64,000 bases of DNA from Pseudomonadota bacterium (GTDB lineage: Bacteria > Pseudomonadota > Alphaproteobacteria > MPNO01). A program made the translations under genes and the position numbers. Within the stretch, counting starts at the first letter, position 1. Each line of letters starts with the position of its first letter. Of the stretch, positions 9,208 to 50,211 are shown piece after piece. The notes under the pieces are model-generated. The model did not search any database. It saw nothing but the letters and a program-made list of their open reading frames with translations, and was not told the origin of the DNA. Location of the stretch: NCBI GenBank assembly GCA_036339495.1, contig JAYZAW010000088.1, positions 4,588 to 68,587 of the forward strand, read 5' to 3'.

Positions 9208-10518
9208 TTGAGAATGGAAACGGTAACCCTTCTCGCATTGGGTGGAATCGTCATCCTTTTGCTGCTATCGGGATTCTTCTCCGGGTCCGAAACCGCGCTC
9301 ACGGCGGCATCCCGACCGCGAATGCACCAGCTCGAAACCGAAGGCAACAAGCGGGCAAAACTTGTCAACGGAATGCGTGATCATCGCGACCGGATGATCG
9401 CGGCCATCCTGCTCGGAAATAATTTGGTAAATATTCTAGCGTCCGCTCTAGCGACCAGCATTTTGATCACCTCTTTCGGCGAAGCGGGCATCGTTTACGC
9501 GACCGCCGCCATGACCGTGCTGATCCTGATTTTTGGTGAAATACTTCCTAAAACATATGCCTTTCGTAATGCCGACCGGGCGGCGTTGACCCTGGCGCCG
9601 ACACTGCGCGTGGTCATTGCGGTTCTGGCGCCCATCTCGGATACGGTCCAGGCAATTATCCGGATTACCTTTCGGTTATTTGGCGTGGATTTAAAGCATG
9701 GTGAGGAATGGGCCGCGACCGAGGAGGAACTTCGCGGCGCAATTGAGCTACATGACGAAGGACCGGAGAGCCGTCAGCAAAGAGCCATGCTGCGCAGCAT
9801 TCTTGATCTTGACGATGTCGAGGTGGAGATGGTGATGCGCCACCGCACCGATATCGCCACAATCGATGCGGACCTGCCGACTGGCGATATCGTCGCACAA
9901 GCTCTGGATAGCCCTTATACGCGGATACCGCTGTGGCGCGAAGAGCCCGACAACATCATCGGGATTTTGCACGCCAAGGCCCTGCTCCGCGCGATTAGCG
10001 AACATCGCGGCGAGTTGGAACATTTGTCGCTGGACAGCATCGTCACGCCGCCATGGTTTATTCCGGAAACGACAACGCTTTTGGAGCAGCTTCAGGCTTT
10101 CCGACGCCGACGTGAACATTTTGCACTGGTCGTTGACGAATATGGCTCACTTATGGGCGTCGTGACATTGGAAGACATTCTGGAAGAAATTGTCGGCGAT
10201 ATCGCCGACGAACATGACGTTGTCCCAATCGGCGTGCGACCACAGCGCGATGGATCATATCTGGTCGATGGAAGCGTCACCATCCGTGATCTCAACCGCC
10301 AATTCGAATGGCGTTTGCCGGACCAAGACGCCGCAACCATTGCCGGGCTGGTGCTACACGAAGCCAAGGTCATCCCCGAAGTGGGACAAATTTTCATATT
10401 TCACGATTTCCGTTTTGAAATCATCCGCCGGCAACGCAACCAGATCACATTGATCCGAATTTCACCGCCCGCGGGCGGAATTTCCGGCGGGTCCGCGGCG
10501 GACGAAACAGCAAGCTAA
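9208..10518 (+). CDS. CNNM/HlyC-CorC family transporter (DUF21 + CBS pair + CorC_HlyC; TlyC-like hemolysin family)
   Basis: 436 aa. An N-terminal multi-TM DUF21 segment (LLLSGFFSGSETALTAAS) is followed by a CBS pair and a C-terminal transporter-associated domain. Confidence 0.8.
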   Translation: MRMETVTLLALGGIVILLLLSGFFSGSETALTAASRPRMHQLETEGNKRAKLVNGMRDHRDRMIAAILLGNNLVNILASALATSILITSFGEAGIVYATAAMTVLILIFGEILPKTYAFRNADRAALTLAPTLRVVIAVLAPISDTVQAIIRITFRLFGVDLKHGEEWAATEEELRGAIELHDEGPESRQQRAMLRSILDLDDVEVEMVMRHRTDIATIDADLPTGDIVAQALDSPYTRIPLWREEPDNIIGILHAKALLRAISEHRGELEHLSLDSIVTPPWFIPETTTLLEQLQAFRRRREHFALVVDEYGSLMGVVTLEDILEEIVGDIADEHDVVPIGVRPQRDGSYLVDGSVTIRDLNRQFEWRLPDQDAATIAGLVLHEAKVIPEVGQIFIFHDFRFEIIRRQRNQITLIRISPPAGGISGGSAADETAS

Positions 10519-11585: not shown

Positions 11586-11671
11586 GGCTAACAATCCCGC
11601 CACCGTGGTGATTTGAGCCGGCCGGCTTGCGACCACGTTAAAAAATCGCGCTAAAAGGCCGGAGGGTAGAT

Positions 11672-11703
11672 CCCCCGGTTTTCATTGGCCGGGGGTTTTT
11701 ATT
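11672..11703 (+). terminator. Rho-independent terminator-like hairpin (cccccgg-N10-ccggggg followed by a T-run) between ctaA and metZ
   Basis: Perfect 7-bp GC stem at 11672-11678 and 11689-11695, followed by TTTTTATTT. It lies 87 nt after the ctaA stop and 30 nt before the metZ ATG. Confidence 0.6.
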
Positions 11704-11733: not shown

Positions 11734-12930
11734 ATGAAGATCGACAAGGATGCCCAGGATTCATGGCGACCAAGGACACAGATGGTTCGCGGCGGATTGA
11801 ATCGTTCGGAATTCGGGGAAACCTCGGAAGCGATGTTCATGACCTCCGGCTATGTTTATGAAGCGGCGGAACAGGCGGAAGATGCCTTCAAGGATCGCGT
11901 CGACCGTTTCATCTATTCCCGGTTCAGCAATCCCACGGTCGATATGTTTCAGGACCGGTTGTGTCTGATCGAAAATGCCCCGGCGTGCCGCGCAACATCC
12001 ACCGGGATGGCGGCCGTATTCGCTTCCATGGCCTGTATGGTCAAGGCGGGCGATCATGTCGTTGGCTCGCGGGCTGTGTTTGGCTCCTGTCTTTATATTT
12101 TGACCGAAATTCTGCCGCGCTATGGTGTTGAGACCACCATCGTGGACGGGCTGGACCTAAATCAATGGCAAGAAGCGCTGAGCCGGCCCACCACCTGTGT
12201 GTTCATTGAGACGCCTTCCAATCCCGGGCTCGACATCATCGACATTGCCGCGGTGTCCGATTTGGCCCACGCGGCGGGCGCCAAAGTCGTGATCGACAAT
12301 GTATTTGCGAGTCCGGTACTGCAAAAGCCGTTGGAGCTGGGCGCCGATATTGTTGTCTATTCCGCAACAAAGCACATTGACGGCCAAGGCCGTTGCATGG
12401 GCGGCGCGATTTTGGGCACGGAAGATTACTGTGAAAACACATTGAAACCTTTCATGCGCCATACCGGACCTTCCATGAGCCCGTTCAATGCATGGGTCCT
12501 TCTAAAAGGGCTGGAAACCCTTGAATTGCGTGTCGAACAGCATTGTCGCAACGCTGCCAATGCCGCCGCATTTTTATCCGACCTGGAGGGGCTGACACGG
12601 GTGGTGTATCCAGGGCTTGAAAGCCACCCACAGCATGAACTCGCGAAAAAGCAAATGAAGGATTACGGCAACATCGTCACGTTCGACATTGACGGCGGCA
12701 AGGAACGATCATTCCGGTTCCTCAATGCGCTTCGCCTGATCGATATTTCAAATAATCTGGGAGACACCAAAAGCCTGGTAACCCATCCTGCGACCACTAC
12801 CCACCAACGCCTGTCGCCGGAAGATCGCGCGTCATTGGGCATTAGCGACAGTCTGGTACGGCTTTCCGTCGGGCTGGAGGATGTCGAAGACGTCAAGGAA
12901 GACATCTCACAGGCCCTCGCATCCGCTTAG
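11734..12930 (+). CDS. metZ: O-succinylhomoserine sulfhydrylase (Cys/Met-metabolism PLP enzyme family)
   Basis: 398 aa. Motifs are ...YSRFSNPTV...VVYSATKHIDGQG..., with the PLP-lysine in SATKH, in the cystathionine gamma-synthase/MetZ family. A GGGAGAG Shine-Dalgarno sequence precedes the ATG. Confidence 0.85.
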   Translation: MKIDKDAQDSWRPRTQMVRGGLNRSEFGETSEAMFMTSGYVYEAAEQAEDAFKDRVDRFIYSRFSNPTVDMFQDRLCLIENAPACRATSTGMAAVFASMACMVKAGDHVVGSRAVFGSCLYILTEILPRYGVETTIVDGLDLNQWQEALSRPTTCVFIETPSNPGLDIIDIAAVSDLAHAAGAKVVIDNVFASPVLQKPLELGADIVVYSATKHIDGQGRCMGGAILGTEDYCENTLKPFMRHTGPSMSPFNAWVLLKGLETLELRVEQHCRNAANAAAFLSDLEGLTRVVYPGLESHPQHELAKKQMKDYGNIVTFDIDGGKERSFRFLNALRLIDISNNLGDTKSLVTHPATTTHQRLSPEDRASLGISDSLVRLSVGLEDVEDVKEDISQALASA

Positions 12931-43100: not shown

Positions 43101-43667
43101 TCAGGTCCCGGTATAGTAATCCGGAAAGTCCGCACGCACGATTTTCCCGTCGCTGCTCCACGTATGGCAGGTATTCAAGGTCGGTTTTACGCCTTTTTCC
43201 TTGCTTCTCTGCCGGGGCCCGGACCGCGACCACAGGACCGTGTGAAAAGCGACAGTCGCGATCGGGCGCAGCAGATCCACCAAATGGGCGCAACCGTGCA
43301 CGCCGCCGAGCCGTTGGCGGACATCGCGGTTCCATCCCGGCCCGATTTTGAGCCCCATGAGTTTATCGAAGCTGGGGACAATATTGCCGCAAATGGGAAA
43401 CGGCGAGGCATCCATTACCGTTTCGACATTCTGGACGACGATATCGTCATCGACGGTCAGACGCAGCCACATATCGTGGTAAAACTGGCCTGGTGCCATC
43501 GTGCCGCGATATTTGTTTTCAAACGCGTAAGCCTTGGCGTCGGTAAGATGCCCTTCGATATCCCACATTCCATCGTCGCGCGCGAAACTGCGGCATTCGC
43601 TTGCCCTTGTGTGAACGGGCTCGCGCGTCACCTGCGGCGATGTCAGCGGCATATCGGTCTCCATCAA
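43101..43667 (-). CDS. DUF2889-like conserved hypothetical protein
   Basis: 188 aa containing ...GGVHGCAHLVDLLRPIATVAFHTV.... It is divergently transcribed from the PaaK-like ligase gene. The family assignment is from memory of the motif and has low certainty. Confidence 0.45.
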   Translation of the reverse strand: MMETDMPLTSPQVTREPVHTRASECRSFARDDGMWDIEGHLTDAKAYAFENKYRGTMAPGQFYHDMWLRLTVDDDIVVQNVETVMDASPFPICGNIVPSFDKLMGLKIGPGWNRDVRQRLGGVHGCAHLVDLLRPIATVAFHTVLWSRSGPRQRSKEKGVKPTLNTCHTWSSDGKIVRADFPDYYTGT

Positions 43668-43793
43668 TTGAGAAGCCCGGCACTATACGTGGGACGCGGA
43701 TTTGGTCAACGATCCCTGGTATAATATCAACGGTCCTTGCCGCGCCCCGCCCGGTCCCATACAACATGCCGGAATGGCAGAAAGGCGAAACAT

Positions 43794-44975
43794 ATGAGTT
43801 TCCCGCGCGACACGGTCAACCAGATGCTGGACCGGCTTGGGGCGCATCCATTTTATAGGAACCGGCTGCCCGGCGCGGTATCCGGCGCGGAAGAATTCGC
43901 CGCCGCGATCCCGCTGATGGCGCGCGGCGATTTGGTCGCCGAGATGGAAAAGCCCGGCTATGGCGCGTTCGGCGGCGCTAACCCGGTCCGTATGAATATG
44001 AGCCCCATGGGCGCCTCGCTGATTCCGGCCATGCAAAGCGCGGGCGATATCGCCAACATGGTGGCCGCCTGCCGGACTCATCTGGATGCCTGCGGGATTA
44101 CCGACGACGACATTTGCGCGGTCACGTTCGGATATCATCTTTTCGTCGCCGGGCTGTTTTACCAAACCCAGATGGAGGCCCATGGCGTGGCCTGCATTCC
44201 CTTGGGACCGGGCGAGGTGGAAAGGGCGGTGGAACTTTGCGCCAGACACAATGTCACTGTGCTGGCGGGCAATCCGTCGTTTTCGCTGCGGCTGATCGAA
44301 GCCGGTTTGAAACCGCCCCGGGTGTTTTTCGCGGGCGGCGAAGCCTTTACCGGCAACCCGGCGCTCCATGGCGCGGTGCGCGCGGCCATGCCCGACACCT
44401 TTCTCGTCGATGCGTTTTCGTTGTCTGAATTCCTTCCCGTGGCCCGCACCTTTCCCGGCGGCGAAGGCGTACATGTATTTGACGAACTGGTTTATGCGGA
44501 AGTCATCGACCCGGAAAGCGGTTTGCCGGTGGCGGATGGCGAGCGCGGAGAACTGGTGCTGACCCATCTCAAAAAAGAAGCGCAGCCTTTAATCCGCTAC
44601 CGCACGGGCGACTTGACGGTCAGGCGCATGACCGATCCGGTTTGCGGGCGGGTGGTAAATCTTCCCCGAGTGGTTTTTGGCCGAACCGATAACATGGTCA
44701 AAATCAAGGGCGTCAAGCTCTACCCATCGGAAATCCGGGCTGTTTTATTGGGGATCAAGGGGATCACCGGCAAGTACAGCTTGTCGGTTTCATCCGGCCC
44801 GGGCGGCGGTGATCGGATAGCGCTTCGGCTGGAAGGCGCGGCCGGCGATGACATCATCGAAGAAATTTCAAAACGGTTCAAATCCCAGACCCTGATTTCC
44901 GCCGACGAAATCGTACTGGTCGAGGAACTCCCCGGCGACGCGTTGGTTGCCGACACGCGAAGGGACACTTCATGA
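43794..44975 (+). CDS. Phenylacetate-CoA ligase / coenzyme F390 synthetase / LuxE-like adenylate-forming enzyme
   Basis: About 394 aa with the PaaK-family architecture and a C-terminal ...VKIKGVKLYPSEIRAVLL... motif (the invariant Lys in the KIKG context). The start was trimmed to MSFPRD (43794). Confidence 0.75.
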   Translation: MSFPRDTVNQMLDRLGAHPFYRNRLPGAVSGAEEFAAAIPLMARGDLVAEMEKPGYGAFGGANPVRMNMSPMGASLIPAMQSAGDIANMVAACRTHLDACGITDDDICAVTFGYHLFVAGLFYQTQMEAHGVACIPLGPGEVERAVELCARHNVTVLAGNPSFSLRLIEAGLKPPRVFFAGGEAFTGNPALHGAVRAAMPDTFLVDAFSLSEFLPVARTFPGGEGVHVFDELVYAEVIDPESGLPVADGERGELVLTHLKKEAQPLIRYRTGDLTVRRMTDPVCGRVVNLPRVVFGRTDNMVKIKGVKLYPSEIRAVLLGIKGITGKYSLSVSSGPGGGDRIALRLEGAAGDDIIEEISKRFKSQTLISADEIVLVEELPGDALVADTRRDTS

Positions 44976-46075
44976 GCGACTGGCGCTTTATCGTCGATCA
45001 CAATTCCTATGCCGATTTTTCGGTCTCTGTCTCGCCGGCGATTGAAAAGGCCGTGGTATCGGGTGAAGCGCCGCCGACAGTCTTTCTTTGCCTGTTCGAC
45101 GCTGATTCGATCACCATCGGCGTCAATGAGGACCCGGAGCAAGCGCTCGATTTGGAATTTTGCGACCAACACAACATCGCCTTTCGCCGCCGACTGAACG
45201 GCGGAGGGGCTATTTATGCGGGTAAAGGCTCGGCGCTGATCGTATTGACGCTCAAAACAGACCATGAACGGGTCCCTGACACGTCCGCGGACGCGTTCCC
45301 CCAAATTCTGACGGCTTTTGCCGAGGTTTTCGCCCGGCGCTATGGTTTTGAGGCGGAATACCGGCCGCTCAACGATATTCAGGTCGAAGGCCGAAAACTG
45401 GTACCGACGTCGCTGAAAATCGAAAACGGCGTCATGACCATGCGCTTTGTGGTCAATTTGAAACCCATCGACACTGAAATGGCGGGCCGCACCATGCCCA
45501 TGCCGCCGGAAAAAGTGGCGGATAAGGAACTCAAGGATCTGACTTCCCGCTTTACCTGGCTGGAGCGCGAAGCAAAACGCGAAATCTCCAGCGCGGAGCT
45601 TGAAGCATTTACGCTGGATTGCATCGAGCACGCCTTCGGTGAGACCAATCTGGAACGTTCGAATTTAATCGCCGCTGAAAATTCATACGCCGAGGATTTT
45701 CGGGCCCAATTCGAGGCCGACGACTGGCTGTTCGGAAAAAGCGAACGCAACCGATTCCGCGATCTGTTGCGGCCCGGCGACACGGTCGGTCGCGGCCGGG
45801 TCAAGGCCGTGGGCGGGATGATCCGCGCGACATTGGCTATTCGCGACGGGCGGGTTTTGCAGGCGATCATCAACGGCGATTGGCATCCACGTCCGATCGA
45901 CGGCATCGGTTGGCTGGAAGAGGCGCTGACGGGAGTGGCGGCGGAACCGGCGGCGCTGAAGGATTGCGCCGGTGCATTCCTTGACCGGCTGGACATCGAG
46001 TTCGCGGGGGTCGAAAAGGCAGATTTGACCTCGGCGCTCGAAAAAGCACTGGCCGATCAGCAGCCCGGTCTTTGA
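44972..46075 (+). CDS. Lipoate/biotin protein ligase-fold protein (LplA-like, divergent)
   Basis: 367 aa. A BPL_LplA_LipB-type N-domain carries the ...NDIQVEGRKLVPTS... lysine motif, and a C-terminal accessory domain is present. The start overlaps the ligase stop by 4 nt (ATGA). Confidence 0.6.
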   Translation: MSDWRFIVDHNSYADFSVSVSPAIEKAVVSGEAPPTVFLCLFDADSITIGVNEDPEQALDLEFCDQHNIAFRRRLNGGGAIYAGKGSALIVLTLKTDHERVPDTSADAFPQILTAFAEVFARRYGFEAEYRPLNDIQVEGRKLVPTSLKIENGVMTMRFVVNLKPIDTEMAGRTMPMPPEKVADKELKDLTSRFTWLEREAKREISSAELEAFTLDCIEHAFGETNLERSNLIAAENSYAEDFRAQFEADDWLFGKSERNRFRDLLRPGDTVGRGRVKAVGGMIRATLAIRDGRVLQAIINGDWHPRPIDGIGWLEEALTGVAAEPAALKDCAGAFLDRLDIEFAGVEKADLTSALEKALADQQPGL

Positions 46076-46078
46076 AAC

Positions 46079-46462
46079 ATGCCGGATTCCGTCGAACTCC
46101 CGGCTGTTCCCGGCGCTTATGTGCTGATCATGGAGAGCAAGCGCCCAATTCCGGTGGCGATCGGCAGTCTGCCTGAAACGACGCTTCCCCCTGGACAATA
46201 TGCCTATGTAGGCAGCGCCCGGGGACCCGGCGGCATCCGCGCAAGGGTGACCCGTCATCTGCGCAGGGACAAAAAGCTCCACTGGCATATCGACCGCATC
46301 ACCACGGCGACCGAAATCACCGATATACGAACCTACCCGGGCGGCGATGAATGCGGTCTGGTGGCCAAAATACTGGCTCACCCGGGCGCGCATCACCCGA
46401 TCATCGGATTTGGCAGTTCCGATTGCCGCAATTGCGCGTCGCATTTCGTCGCGCTGGATTGA
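46079..46462 (+). CDS. DUF123 (Uri/GIY-YIG-like superfamily) protein
   Basis: 127 aa with GAYVL...YAYVGSA...KKLHWHIDRI... motifs characteristic of DUF123. It starts 3 nt after the LplA-like stop. Confidence 0.55.
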   Translation: MPDSVELPAVPGAYVLIMESKRPIPVAIGSLPETTLPPGQYAYVGSARGPGGIRARVTRHLRRDKKLHWHIDRITTATEITDIRTYPGGDECGLVAKILAHPGAHHPIIGFGSSDCRNCASHFVALD

Positions 46463-46475
46463 ACGGAATCACCCC

Positions 46476-46766
46476 TTACTCAGCCGCCGCGGCCGCTATT
46501 TCGGCGGTATCGATTCCGGACGACTGCGCCATGCCCATAGCCACCAGATAGGTGTCGAGCAACAATTCCTGCTCCTGGCGGTCGGCATCTTCCATTTTGC
46601 GCAAACGAACCACCTGGCGCATGATTTTTGGATCGAATCCGGTTCCCTTGGCCTCGGCATAGACCTCTTTGATATCGGCGCCGAGTTCGGCTTTTTCCTC
46701 TTCAAGCCGCTCAATTCGTTCAATAAATGAGCGAAGCCTATCCTGCGCTGCATCACCGTCGACCAT
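46476..46766 (-). CDS. gapR: GapR-like nucleoid-associated protein (DUF2312)
   Basis: ...[65 protein letters not shown]... The start was trimmed to MVDGD. Confidence 0.8.
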
Positions 46767-46893
46767 GGTCGTCTCTCCCTTACACAAATTCCCGGAATCG
46801 GAAGTCAGAACCATAAAGAACCACGCCCCGAATCAGAACGATCAGACCTGGACGACAGCCAAATAGCTGTGGATAAGGAGTCAATAACCTCGA

Positions 46894-47286: not shown

Positions 47287-48096
47287 TCACAGGCCGGCGA
47301 CCGTTTCCTCGATCAGTAAGTCGACCACTGATTTCAGCGCGGACTCATGGTCCGACCCCAATTTTACCGCCGCGTGATAGGCCGCAAGCTGGTGATGCGC
47401 GCTAGCGCCTCGGGTGACGATGATACGCGCATGTTCGAGTTCGTCCCGCCAGTCGAAAAATTCGGCGTCTTCACGCAGCAGTTCAATGATTTCGTGGAGC
47501 AATTCGTTGAATGGGACGATTTTACCCTTGCCGAAATCGACCAAACCTTCATCGAAACCGTAACGTTGGGCGCGCCACCTGTTTTCATCGACTAGAAATC
47601 TCGAATAAACGCGCCAGCGCTGATTATCGCGCCGCAGCCGGTACAGCGCCCGGCACAGGCATCGATAGTTCGCCGCGATGCATATGGCGTCGTCGAGCCG
47701 GGTACAAACATCGGTAATGCGCATTTCCAATGTGGGAAACCGCGCCGACGGGCGGATATCCCACCAAATATTTCTGGCGTCCTCGATCAAACCGGCGTGA
47801 ACCAGGGCATTCACGGTCCGTTGGTATTCTCCATGGCTTGCGAATTGCTCCGGCAGACCGCTGCGCGGCAATTCGTTGAACACACAGAGCAGGTATGATT
47901 TCAACCAGGTATCAGCCTCCTCCCAAAATGGCGACGAGGTGCTCAGCGCCAACAAATGAGGCAGGAAGTATGGGATCTGATTGAGGATGTCGATGGCGAG
48001 GTCATCATCGTCGAGGCCATTGAGTCTCTCAGAAAATTGTAACGCAAAGGCCGTGATCGTCGCTAGGCTGCGGGGTGATCCGCGGAACGTAACGGA
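47287..48096 (-). pseudogene. N-terminally truncated GCS2-family carboxylate-amine ligase (YbdK-like) remnant
   Basis: The open frame encodes only the C-terminal 220-265 aa (...IPYFLPHLLALSTSSPFW...WWDIRPSARFPTLEMRITDVCTRLDDAICIAANY...). This aligns to YbdK residues from about 125 to the end. Upstream, the frame has no ATG/GTG and runs into the adjacent ADH gene, so the N-terminal catalytic region is missing. Confidence 0.6.
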
Positions 48097-49155: not shown

Positions 49156-50211
49156 TCATTTGTCACCAAGTTCCGCGCGCACGATGGACGCGCCATCGAC
49201 CATGGCCGAAAGCTTGCCGAATGCGATCTCGCGGGACAGATACTTCATGCCGCAATCGGGCGCCACGATTAGACGGTCAGCCGATACGCGCTTCAGGGCC
49301 TGGCGAATTCGATCCGCCACCATTTCCGGCGTCTCAACTTCCGGGTCGCCCATGGAAATCACGCCCAGCATGATTTTTTTCGACGCCAACGATCCGATTA
49401 CGGAATTATCGAGCCGGGGTTCCGCGGCCTCAATCGAAATCTGATCGGCGCAACACGCATCCAATTCGGGCAAAAAAGAATATCCGCTGGGCTTTTCATG
49501 GACGACCGCGGCATATCCGAAGCACATATGGATTGCCGTCTCGCCGGTTGCGCCTTCCAGCGCCCGGGCGATCGTTTTGACGGCGTATCTCTTGGCTTTT
49601 TCATGGCGCGACTGCATCCATGGCTCATCGAGTTGAACGATATCGGCGCCGGCGTGGAACAACGCCCGGACTTCTTCATTGACCGCCTCGGCATAGGCCA
49701 TCGCCAAGGCTTCTTCGTCCCCGTAATACTCGTCTTGCGCCTGCTGACTCATGGTGAAAGGGCCGGGTAGAGTTATTCTGATGGCGCGATCCGTGTTGGC
49801 GCGCAAGAATTCGGTATCGCGCACCTGGACCGGCCGCGCCCGTCGAATCGGCCCGACGACGCGGGGCACGGGCGTGGAACTTCCGGTTCGTCCCAGCACC
49901 GAGCCCGGGCTGTCGATATCGACGCCTTCGAGCGCGGTCGCAAAATGGTTTGAATAGCTTTCCCGTCTGATCTCTCCGTCGGTAATGATATCGATCCCGG
50001 CGCGTTCCATATCGCGCACAGCCAGAATTGTGGCGTCGTCCTGCGCGTCCTGGAGATTTTCCTCGGACACCCGCCATAACTCACGCGCCCGCACGCGAGG
50101 GGGCATTCGGCTTTTCAGTTTGTCCTGATCAACCAGCCATGTGGGCTGAGGGTAGCTTCCGACCACGCTGGTCGGAAGCAGATTTGGAACTGTTCTACTC
50201 ATACGCGCCAA
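49156..50211 (-). CDS. Cobalamin-independent methionine synthase (MetE) C-terminal-domain-like protein
   Basis: 351 aa. The UroD/MetE-like barrel starts with VVGSYPQP (compare the MetE C-domain) and carries zinc-ligand-like His/Cys (HMCFG...APDCGM). Confidence 0.65.
   Translation of the reverse strand: MARMSRTVPNLLPTSVVGSYPQPTWLVDQDKLKSRMPPRVRARELWRVSEENLQDAQDDATILAVRDMERAGIDIITDGEIRRESYSNHFATALEGVDIDSPGSVLGRTGSSTPVPRVVGPIRRARPVQVRDTEFLRANTDRAIRITLPGPFTMSQQAQDEYYGDEEALAMAYAEAVNEEVRALFHAGADIVQLDEPWMQSRHEKAKRYAVKTIARALEGATGETAIHMCFGYAAVVHEKPSGYSFLPELDACCADQISIEAAEPRLDNSVIGSLASKKIMLGVISMGDPEVETPEMVADRIRQALKRVSADRLIVAPDCGMKYLSREIAFGKLSAMVDGASIVRAELGDK

Follow-up and report, generated by a model that had tools for sequence, protein, structure and literature searches.

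A conserved pair of PaaK-like and LplA-like genes in Alpha- and Betaproteobacteria, a candidate split carboxylate-CoA ligase

The locus lies within a 64,000-nucleotide stretch of DNA, analysed at full length and referred to here as the window. A DUF2889 gene on the minus strand (43101–43667, identified by ORF and Pfam) is followed by three genes forming a single plus-strand unit. These encode a 393-aa PaaK-like protein of the ANL superfamily (43794–44975) and a 367-aa LplA-like protein with a divergent LplA fold (44972–46075), both recognised by ORF, Pfam and PDB matches, and a 127-aa DUF123 protein with a GIY-YIG fold (46079–46462, ORF and Pfam). The longest ORF of the PaaK-like gene runs from an alternative start, TTG 43737, and gives 412 aa; the likely start is ATG 43794, after ‘aggcgaaacat’, as the resulting 393 aa agree with orthologue length. 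Direct reading of the plus strand places a stop/start overlap, ATGA, at 44972–44975 (‘cttcATGAgcg’), which indicates translational coupling of the PaaK-like and LplA-like genes. At the LplA-like/DUF123 junction, ‘ctTTGAaacATGccg’, the stop at 46073–46075 and the start at 46079 are separated by a 3-nt gap. An earlier note on this DNA had given the same gene positions, overlap, gap and coupling, all borne out by the sequence, and had correctly described the flanks, a J-domain protein and GapR (Pfam) together with CobS and CobT. Its expectation of a lineage-conserved, non-mobile module also held, the unit being chromosomal and conserved across a lineage.

Pfam profile searches confirmed the four family assignments proposed in the note. 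The PaaK-like protein matched AMP-binding (E = 1e-8, 34.5 bits, cut-off 29.9) and, slightly below the 25-bit cut-off, AMP-binding_C_2 (E = 6e-5, 23.7 bits), and the LplA-like protein matched LplA-B_cat (PF21948) over residues 27–213 (E = 2.7e-23, 83.4 bits, cut-off 27). DUF123 (PF01986; E = 2e-22, 79.9 bits, cut-off 25) and DUF2889 (E = 6e-42, 143 bits) were both clear matches. The placement of the 367-aa protein in the LplA fold and of the 127-aa protein in DUF123 was thus upheld. The note had further likened the PaaK-like protein to LuxE, a link which was not upheld, with no LuxE match in Pfam at E ≤ 0.01.

We compared 81 loci from different species, including marine Rhodospirillaceae-type MAGs, Defluviicoccus, Roseospira and Paraburkholderia, and thus spanning Alpha- and Betaproteobacteria. 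In 80 of the 81 the two genes are adjacent and co-directional, PaaK-like first and LplA-like second; the sole exception has no upstream DNA. LplA-like proteins share 51–87% identity across these loci and co-diverge with their PaaK-like partners (r = 0.88). The three-gene order with DUF123 occurs in 35 loci, all from one clade in which DUF123 is co-inherited with the pair (r = 0.80), and DUF123 is missing from the other 46. DUF2889 adjoins the pair in two loci only, those of the window and of L002, its closest relative. The conserved core is therefore an obligate PaaK-like/LplA-like two-gene pair, with DUF123 a clade-restricted accessory gene that is non-essential to the unit and DUF2889 a mere neighbour outside the module. 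Co-localisation of the three plus-strand genes, as the note had proposed, does recur elsewhere, but the unit that is conserved throughout is the pair, and DUF2889 drops out as a member. With L002 as reference, dN/dS was 0.078 for the PaaK-like gene, 0.088 for the LplA-like gene and 0.19 for DUF123, values that indicate purifying selection on each gene. A literature search found no publication describing the pair.

The ANL two-domain fold of the PaaK-like protein is detectable by profile, and PDB structures of PaaK were matched over residues 55–355 with E-values of 1e-29 to 2e-38, the lowest being obtained with the family profile. Scores against the NCBIfam PaaK models were low (165.8 bits vs a cut-off of 700 for NF041878; 130.7 vs 646.3 for TIGR02155), and an AF2 model of the protein was poor (pLDDT 59). 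Motifs were analysed in 199 orthologues, with invariance of A5, A7 and A8 judged in 35 diverse ones. These three motifs are kept and invariant: A5 as F208-S-L-S-E212, A7 as Y269-R-T-G-D273 and A8 as G296-R-T-D299..K303..G306. The A3 phosphate-binding P-loop, canonically (S/T)(S/T)G(S/T)TGxPK, is degenerate, reading S70-P-M-G-A-S-L-I-P78 in the window; across the orthologues S93-SGTTGKPT of E. coli PaaK becomes S/T-P-M-G-x-x-L-V/I-P, with leucine at the G98 equivalent in 198 of 199 sequences and valine or isoleucine at that of K99. This mapping was reproduced by a profile-to-PDB alignment of the family, and the altered loop is itself invariant at P71, M72, G73, L76 and P78. The A10 lysine column (E. 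coli PaaK K424; Px4GK) holds D, E or G, just downstream of a 5-residue deletion. None of the 199 orthologues thus has the ATP-binding P-loop or the catalytic lysine of A10, and the note’s premise of two different carboxylate-activating enzymes fails. Canonical PaaK paralogues at the same loci, none of them partnered by an LplA-like protein, retain ‘SSSGSTGVPR’ and ‘FKAKRVRD’.

The LplA-like protein presents a different picture of conservation. In all 201 sequences examined, the RRxxGGG motif (R73, R74, G77–G79) and the catalytic lysine K142, equivalent to K133 of E. coli LplA, are kept, and N134-D135, K181, D184, K185, R193 and T195 are further invariant residues. Residues of the lipoyl pocket are replaced, with A-G in place of E. 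coli H79/D80 and R158 in place of H149, and the GSA that follows the catalytic lysine in LplA reads PTS. LplA structures in the PDB were matched at E = 4e-13. The Lip_prot_lig_C profile (PF10437) matched residues 280–355 weakly (17.1 bits, cut-off 24), and this stretch could be aligned with the C-domains of 1VQZ and 5IBY; a divergent C-terminal domain thus appears to be present. A domain of this kind is needed for lipoyl-AMP synthesis (PMC7253636). Among NCBIfam models, the lipoate-protein ligase equivalog TIGR00545 scored 82 bits (cut-off 280), and the matches to LplAB, LplA large subunit and LplB were weak (29.5 bits vs a cut-off of 65 for LplB). Relatives at 40% identity or less exist without any PaaK-like partner, hence this subfamily has some function of its own, a point that counts against the split-ligase reading proposed below.

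The DUF123 protein has the GIY-YIG alpha/beta fold, with conserved G12, Y14, Y43, G45, R56, R59, H60, W69, H70 and D72, followed by E91, C92, D115, C116, C119 and H122. The conserved Tyr, Arg, His and Glu would equate to the catalytic residues of GIY-YIG nucleases, while C92, C116, C119 and H122 possibly form a metal site.

The usual setting of the pair is CoA-thioester catabolism. A PaaG-type crotonase lies beside it in 70 of the 81 loci, a PaaH-like 3-hydroxyacyl-CoA dehydrogenase in 54 and an NMO/FabK-like (FMN) enzyme nearby in 37, and other recurrent neighbours include thiolases, an HMGS-like protein and DUF35. In Paraburkholderia the pair is also accompanied by CoA-transferases and acyl-CoA dehydrogenases, and some clades have genes for an HcaT-like transporter and gentisate dioxygenase linked to it. 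The window and L002 have lost all of the associated catabolic genes from the locus, and no crotonase, dehydrogenase or thiolase of these types was found within the 64 kb. In this lineage the pair and DUF123 are separated from the catabolic genes, yet remain under purifying selection. The pathway link for the window’s own genome is an extrapolation from other genomes. As the note had observed, no GcvH/E2, paa operon or BCCP lies near the unit.

The recurrence of CoA-thioester enzymes suggests a small-molecule acyl-CoA product, and we tentatively favour a reading, held at somewhat short of even confidence, in which the two proteins together constitute a split AMP-forming carboxylate-CoA ligase, the LplA-like protein making the acyl-AMP and the PaaK-like protein the thioester. 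Adenylation by ANL enzymes needs the P-loop, which holds the beta- and gamma-phosphates of ATP, and the A10 lysine; with both lost, just the LplA-like protein of the pair looks able to adenylate. A10-lysine mutants of PrpE and Acs reportedly lose adenylation and still convert acyl-AMP and CoA to acyl-CoA. In the proposed sequence of steps, the LplA-like protein would bind a carboxylic acid and ATP and form acyl-AMP, which the PaaK-like protein would accept, probably within a complex, moving the acyl group to CoA. The gene neighbourhoods of other genomes suggest that the acyl-CoA would then enter a paa-like or beta-oxidation-like route through the PaaG-type crotonase, PaaH-like dehydrogenase, thiolases and NMO/FabK-family FMN enzyme. 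The pair thus probably serves a breakdown pathway and not protein tagging. The linkage of HcaT-like transporters and gentisate dioxygenase in some clades makes an aromatic or arylalkanoic acid the probable substrate. LplA enzymes normally retain the acyl-AMP and then transfer the acyl group to a protein lysine, and we know of no described hand-off from LplA to an ANL enzyme.

The PaaK-like protein may instead be a complete acyl-CoA (or acyl-AMP) ligase with a non-canonical nucleotide site, leaving the LplA-like protein as an accessory subunit (substrate-binding, regulatory or chaperone-like) or responsible for another step, such as amide formation. Because the altered P-loop is invariant, it could be such a site instead of a dead one; its strict conservation suggests new function and not decay, invariant positions make up about 40% of the PaaK-like protein, and PaaK structures are still matched over residues 55–355. 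We nevertheless regard this alternative as unlikely, as both adenylation-specific elements, reported to be strongly conserved among aryl-CoA ligases, are gone from every orthologue, and the full set of catalytic-core motifs kept in the LplA-like protein would be needless in a purely structural subunit.

The note itself had favoured two-step acyl transfer to, or tagging of, a protein or a nucleic-acid-associated target, in which the LplA-like protein would be the transferase acting on a protein lysine and DUF123 a functional third component. The customary acylation of protein lysines by the LplA family, the retained catalytic lysine, the GIY-YIG nuclease fold of DUF123, its translational closeness to and co-inheritance with the pair in one clade, and the presence in the window of the three genes alone, without CoA enzymes, are consistent with this. 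On the other hand, DUF123 is absent from more than half of the loci and its homologues, ~50–55% identical, are found in unrelated gene contexts; the neighbour families found in six or more loci include no candidate acceptor, whether a carrier protein or one with a lipoyl/biotinyl domain; and PADLOC matched no known defence or tagging system. With CoA-thioester enzymes as the recurrent partners and nothing in the neighbourhoods indicating a protein or nucleic-acid target, we consider tagging quite improbable.

Less probable again is a role of the LplA-like protein in cofactor salvage as an ordinary lipoate/octanoate-protein ligase, assisted by a PaaK-like protein working, for example, in reverse to turn octanoyl- or lipoyl-CoA from beta-oxidation into acyl-AMP. 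Its core motifs and apparently full LplA architecture, the beta-oxidation-type neighbours that could provide medium-chain acyl-CoA and the precedent of a lipoyl-AMP relay in vertebrates would fit such a role, but its equivalog score is far under the cut-off, the LplA-conserved residues around the lipoyl pocket are replaced, none of the 81 loci links the pair to GcvH, E2, LipA or LipB, and the gentisate dioxygenase, HcaT-like transporter and PaaG-like crotonase are left unexplained. Lastly, a chance grouping of unrelated genes, or else the remnant of an operon in decay, for which the stripping of catabolic genes from the window and L002 would speak, is extremely unlikely given near-universal adjacency in two proteobacterial classes, the coupling ATGA overlap, intact full-length ORFs and dN/dS of 0.08–0.19; both versions are effectively refuted by the comparative data, the gene neighbourhoods having been the note’s own proposed check.

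Should the split-ligase reading be correct, the ATP-dependent adenylation would be carried by a subunit of the LplA/class-II-synthetase fold, and the pair would act at the head of a so far uncharacterised paa-like catabolic pathway in marine Alphaproteobacteria and Paraburkholderia, where it is widespread (~80 bacterial species). More tentatively still, the sequences raise the possibility that this is the first acyl-CoA synthetase built from two unrelated adenylate-enzyme superfamilies, its ANL subunit a dedicated acyl-AMP:CoA thioester former that has lost adenylation for good.

Among known systems, GIY-YIG nucleases (UvrC N-terminal domain, I-TevI, T4 EndoII) have the G-x-Y/Y-x-G pair, Arg, His and Glu in common with the DUF123 protein, which differs in being very small, without a DNA-binding extension, in its additional conserved Cys/His set and in its location in metabolic operons and many unrelated contexts. 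PaaK and its relatives (PDB 2Y27, 2Y4O, 4R1L and 6HDW, a 2-hydroxyisobutyryl-CoA synthetase; E = 1e-35 to 1e-38 with the family profile) share fold, domain order and motifs A5, A7 and A8 with the PaaK-like protein, whose gene in most genomes likewise has PaaG-like and PaaH-like neighbours. Unlike PaaK, all PaaK-like orthologues lack the P-loop and A10 lysine, score 4–5 fold under the equivalog cut-offs and are always encoded beside an LplA-like gene, with no paaABCDE epoxidase genes nearby. LplA (PDB 1VQZ, 5IBY, 8CRI; E. coli b4386) shares its catalytic domain and, as it appears, a C-terminal accessory domain with the LplA-like protein, and the RRxxGGG and N-D motifs, catalytic lysine and K/D/K/R/T adenylate-loop residues are common to both. 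The LplA-like protein is ~30 aa longer, has other residues in place of H149, the H-D that follows GGG and the GSA behind the lysine, scores well below the equivalog cut-off and has no linked lipoyl-domain partner, although such linkage is not what defines LplA; it is instead obligately coupled to an ANL protein, within acyl-CoA catabolic operons.

The lipoate-activating enzyme of vertebrates is a medium-chain acyl-CoA synthetase. In the vertebrate lipoyl-AMP relay it is joined by a ‘half ligase’, LIPT1, one partner being unable to adenylate, although the physiological relevance of this relay is disputed (PMC7253636). ANL and LplA-fold enzymes there share one acyl-adenylate chemistry, as proposed for the pair, hence the note’s statement that such a pairing is not a known pathway holds for the pair itself, on which no publication was found, but not for the combination of folds. 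The roles appear reversed, since here it is the ANL partner that has lost the adenylation motifs and the LplA-fold partner that is intact, and the predicted acceptor is CoA and not a protein lysine. Bipartite lipoate ligases (Thermoplasma LplA-LplB; sLpl(AB) of the sHdr system) similarly divide the adenylation function over two adjacent gene products, but there each part is an LplA domain and a lipoyl-domain protein is modified, whereas the LplA-like protein already appears to hold both domains and its partner comes from an unrelated superfamily.

Gene calls, Pfam searches and the sequence junctions bear out the four families and the layout that the earlier note had assigned to this locus. A DUF2889 gene (43101–43667, minus strand; ORF map and Pfam) is separated by a divergent spacer of 126 bp (43668–43793) from a plus-strand PaaK-like gene (43794–44975), whose longest ORF opens at 43737 and whose probable start, from the ORF map and sequence, is the ATG at 43794. 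This ATG is preceded by 'aggcgaa' and gives a protein of 393 aa, the length of all orthologues compared. The LplA-like gene (44972–46075, plus strand, 367 aa) overlaps the preceding stop in ATGA at 44972–44975, the DUF123 gene (46079–46462, plus strand) starts 3 nt past the LplA-like stop, and downstream of DUF123 lies the convergent GapR gene (46476–46814, minus strand). Pfam matches were obtained to DUF2889, AMP-binding/AMP-binding_C_2, LplA-B_cat, DUF123, GapR, a J-domain protein, CobS and CobT, with a weak Lip_prot_lig_C match at the LplA-like C-terminus. Among NCBIfam models the closest to the PaaK-like protein is PaaK (166 vs an equivalog cut-off of 700) and the closest to the 367-aa protein is lipoate-protein ligase (82 vs 280), both scores falling far short. 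The spacer at 43668–43793 holds one sigma-70-like match (TTGACC-16-TATAGT, minus strand, pointing to DUF2889) and no plus-strand match for the operon, and the total of such matches in these 126 bp is not above that in shuffled sequence.

A search of one-genome-per-species contigs with an LplA-like profile returned 105 relatives, and the best 80 of the 105 were used. Their hosts are uncultured marine Rhodospirillaceae, other Alphaproteobacteria, Defluviicoccus, Roseospira goensis, Algihabitans and Kiloniellales, together with ~18 species of Paraburkholderia, Caballeronia and Burkholderia. Gene content was taken from conservation-weighted gene calls and tblastn mapping, and neighbours were counted by mapping window proteins and neighbour families back to 81 loci, the window counted in. 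Adjacency of the two ligase-like genes is obligate, with PaaK-like immediately 5′ of LplA-like on the same strand at 80 of 81 loci and the one exception beginning within the LplA-like gene. The gene-neighbourhood comparison proposed in the earlier note thus upholds a two-gene pair, but not the three- or four-gene module envisaged there: DUF123 lies immediately 3′ of the pair at 35/81 loci, all in one clade, and DUF2889 adjoins at two (2/81), the window and its closest relative L002 (87% identical). LplA-like relatives whose identity is 40%, 37% and 28% lack a PaaK-like partner, hence the pairing defines one clade only, of at least 51% identity.

In other genomes the pair is surrounded by CoA enzymes. 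A crotonase gene follows the pair or DUF123 at 70/81 loci, and a 508-aa 3-hydroxyacyl-CoA dehydrogenase (PRK08268, PaaH-like) is present at 54/81. Further recurrent neighbours are an NMO/FabK-like FMN enzyme (37/81), a TPP enzyme (PRK08327, 35/81), an HcaT-like MFS transporter (34/81), a small DOPA-dioxygenase-family protein (32/81) and gentisate 1,2-dioxygenase (18/81), the last mostly with FAA-hydrolase and MarR genes. Thiolase, HMG-CoA-synthase-like and DUF35 genes form a trio in ~18 loci; in the marine locus L001 (9895–13128) and ~17 other marine loci they are consecutive and downstream of the pair, with the third encoding zf-ChsH2/OB domains. This alphaproteobacterial trio resembles the archaeal thiolase/HMGCS/DUF35 complex. 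Paraburkholderia loci carry LysR, SDR, acetyl-CoA transferase and thiolase genes upstream, and genes for a crotonase, MaoC, a citrate-synthase-fold protein, acyl-CoA dehydrogenase, a CaiB-type transferase and PrpD downstream.

A simple beta-oxidation hydratase was considered for the linked crotonase and rejected, as both PaaF catalytic glutamates (E109, E129) are absent (for example, in L042 at 9565–10347, a Defluviicoccus-type locus) and the protein resembles the isomerase PaaG. It carries 'IPD' where PaaG has its aspartate (68/70 sequences) and is probably of the isomerase or hydrolase type rather than a hydratase. Given the recurrent neighbour enzymes and the PaaG-like crotonase, the usual setting of the pair is a CoA-thioester catabolism operon of paa-like flavour. 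The earlier note had suggested acyl transfer to, or tagging of, a protein or possibly a nucleic-acid-associated target; the recurrent neighbours instead tie the pair to acyl-CoA catabolism.

For the PaaK-like protein, 199 orthologues were aligned to E. coli PaaK and to canonical PaaK paralogues, which some of these loci encode a few kb from the pair. The A3 P-loop, S93-S-G-T-T-G-K-P-T in E. coli PaaK and 'SSSGSTGVPR' in the paralogues, reads S/T-P-M-G-x-x-L-V/I-P in the PaaK-like family, with G98 replaced by L in 198/199 sequences and K99 by V or I. An independent profile-to-PDB alignment maps the P-loop in the same way ('ASSGTTGKPT' of 2Y4O against 'LSPMGASLVP' of the family). The A10 lysine, which is K424 of 'SEGKACRV' in E. 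coli PaaK and lies in 'FKAKRVRD' in the paralogues, is replaced by D, E or G, and a deletion of 5 residues immediately precedes it. The A5, A7 and A8 motifs, present in E. coli PaaK and the paralogues, are invariant in the family, over 35 diverse orthologues, as F-S-L-S-E, Y-R-T-G-D and G-R-T-D..K..G. The P-loop binds ATP phosphates (Ser94, Thr96 and Thr97 in PaaK1), the highly conserved A10 lysine is the central residue in the adenylation conformation, and A5, A7 and A8 place the nucleotide and bind ribose (PMC8388817). With the P-loop and A10 lysine lost and A5, A7 and A8 kept, the PaaK-like protein looks fit to bind an AMP moiety and not to adenylate. An AlphaFold2 model of it (mean pLDDT 59) was built from an alignment of 35 orthologues, all rows at least 68% identical, which is too shallow and leaves the model unusable for fold or pocket.

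The motif pattern of the LplA-like protein is the opposite, so that loss and retention in the two proteins are complementary. Across 201 LplA-like sequences, R73-R74..G77-G78-G79 (RRxxGGG), N134-D135 and K142 (equivalent to E. coli K133) are invariant, as are K181, D184, K185, R193 and T195. Its C-terminal domain is divergent and aligns with the LplA accessory domain, with a weak profile match. Departures from canonical LplA are A-G for the H-D after GGG, PTS for the GSA after the lysine, and R158 for H149.

The pair is likely a functional unit serving acyl-CoA metabolism. For its chemistry we tentatively propose, from computational evidence, a split ligase, which is a serious possibility short of an expectation. 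The LplA-like protein would produce an acyl-AMP, and the PaaK-like protein, coupled to it translationally and probably also physically, would acylate CoA from that intermediate. The acyl-CoA would then enter crotonase, dehydrogenase and thiolase steps, the putative substrate being an aromatic or arylalkanoic acid. PrpE and Acs mutated at the A10 lysine no longer adenylate but still convert acyl-AMP and CoA to acyl-CoA, which makes an ANL protein confined to thioesterification plausible. In Defluviicoccus-type loci (L015–L024, L030, L035, L039, L042, L060) the region ~4.5 kb upstream of the pair encodes a canonical PaaK paralogue whose P-loop and A10 lysine are both intact, followed by the DOPA-dioxygenase-family gene; these genomes therefore retain a complete ligase alongside the split pair.

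The 64-kb window contains no member of any of the associated catabolic families. This bare arrangement is limited, among the 81 loci, to the window and L002; the next relative, L003 (74% identity), retains the downstream crotonase and NMO genes. Despite the bare locus all three genes are intact and under purifying selection, with window-to-L002 dN/dS of 0.078 (PaaK-like), 0.088 (LplA-like) and 0.19 (DUF123) at dS ~0.8–1.0, similar to GapR (0.10).

We regard DUF123 as accessory or a passenger and not as essential; it is absent at 46/81 pair loci. Within the clade that bears it, its divergence tracks that of LplA-like (r = 0.80; 0.88 for PaaK-like), hence it has been inherited in place. Across 60 sequences G12, Y14, Y43, G45, R56, R59, H60, W69, H70 and D72 are invariant, as are F111, G112, D115, C116, C119 and H122, and E91 and C92 are kept in at least 90%; C92, C116, C119 and H122 may form a metal site. 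A sequence search against solved structures gave no match for DUF123, and literature searches for the name returned only prefix matches (e.g. DUF1234, DUF1236). Homologues ~50–55% identical have other neighbours: they follow a gene for a PAS histidine kinase or a glyoxalase, or adjoin one for a Flp pilin. In a further context of this kind (L083, 3739–5522) the homologue, 48% identical to that of the window by alignment and 52% by BLASTP, shares 4 nt with the end of the preceding gene, which encodes an ATP-grasp ligase, a second instance of DUF123 behind a carboxylate-activating enzyme which may be coincidence.

Elsewhere in the window, a SAM_alpha riboswitch (RF00521, Alphaproteobacteria; 11595–11674, plus strand; 71 bits vs a gathering score of 36) immediately precedes the gene of a PLP enzyme of Cys/Met metabolism (11734–12930). 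A GCS2/YbdK carboxylate-amine ligase ORF (47287–47955, minus strand, 222 aa) matches profile positions 159–372 of 378 with ~107 bp to the next gene, and looks like a 5′-truncated gene or pseudogene. The 93-nt tRNA-Phe called by ARAGORN at 49617–49709 (minus strand) lies inside a Meth_synt_2 (MetE-like) ORF on the same strand (49156–50211) and is probably a false positive.

ANL enzymes are a textbook case of a single protein carrying out two half-reactions by domain alternation. If the split-ligase reading is true, these half-reactions are separable in evolution, the adenylation half having been discarded and an LplA-fold enzyme recruited for it, and LplA-fold chemistry, beyond protein lysines, takes in CoA thioesters of small molecules. 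Hundreds of 'phenylacetate-CoA ligase' and 'lipoate-protein ligase A' labels in marine metagenomes and Paraburkholderia would then need re-annotation. The pair also flags a catabolic operon, conserved and uncharacterised, of abundant marine bacteria (HcaT-like transporter, TPP enzyme, pair, PaaG-like crotonase, NMO/FabK-like enzyme, PaaH-like dehydrogenase), whose substrate could be found by experiment since the pair is carried by Paraburkholderia and Roseospira strains in culture, among them Paraburkholderia tropica LMG 22274, P. unamae and Roseospira goensis JA135.

The LplA-like protein belongs to a wider, uncharacterised subfamily of ~365-aa proteins (80 clusters at E ≤ 1e-30). One JGI metagenome contig (L087, 298–3803) encodes three tandem LplA-like paralogues (375, 362 and 378 aa) without a PaaK-like gene. 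Of these only the middle one has the catalytic lysine, lost from both outer copies, a pattern that suggests a heteromeric assembly of LplA-like proteins. LplA-like matches of 450–1117 aa were rejected as fusions of the pair, to which they are unrelated, since they join canonical-type ligases to DUF116 or CO_dh, and no PaaK-LplA fusion was found among the best 120 PaaK-like matches. PADLOC gave no meaningful match to a defence system. The earlier note had put the arrangement forward as a candidate undescribed module, and literature searches combining lipoate-protein ligase with phenylacetate-CoA ligase or CoA ligase, or using 'LplA-like', found no description of the pair. The PaaK-like protein differs from PaaK proper in lacking the P-loop and the A10 lysine and in scoring below the equivalog cut-off, and its partner falls below the equivalog score for LplA. 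As an analogue the vertebrate lipoyl-AMP 'half-ligase' comes closest; relative to it the pair is predicted to have reversed roles and a different acceptor.
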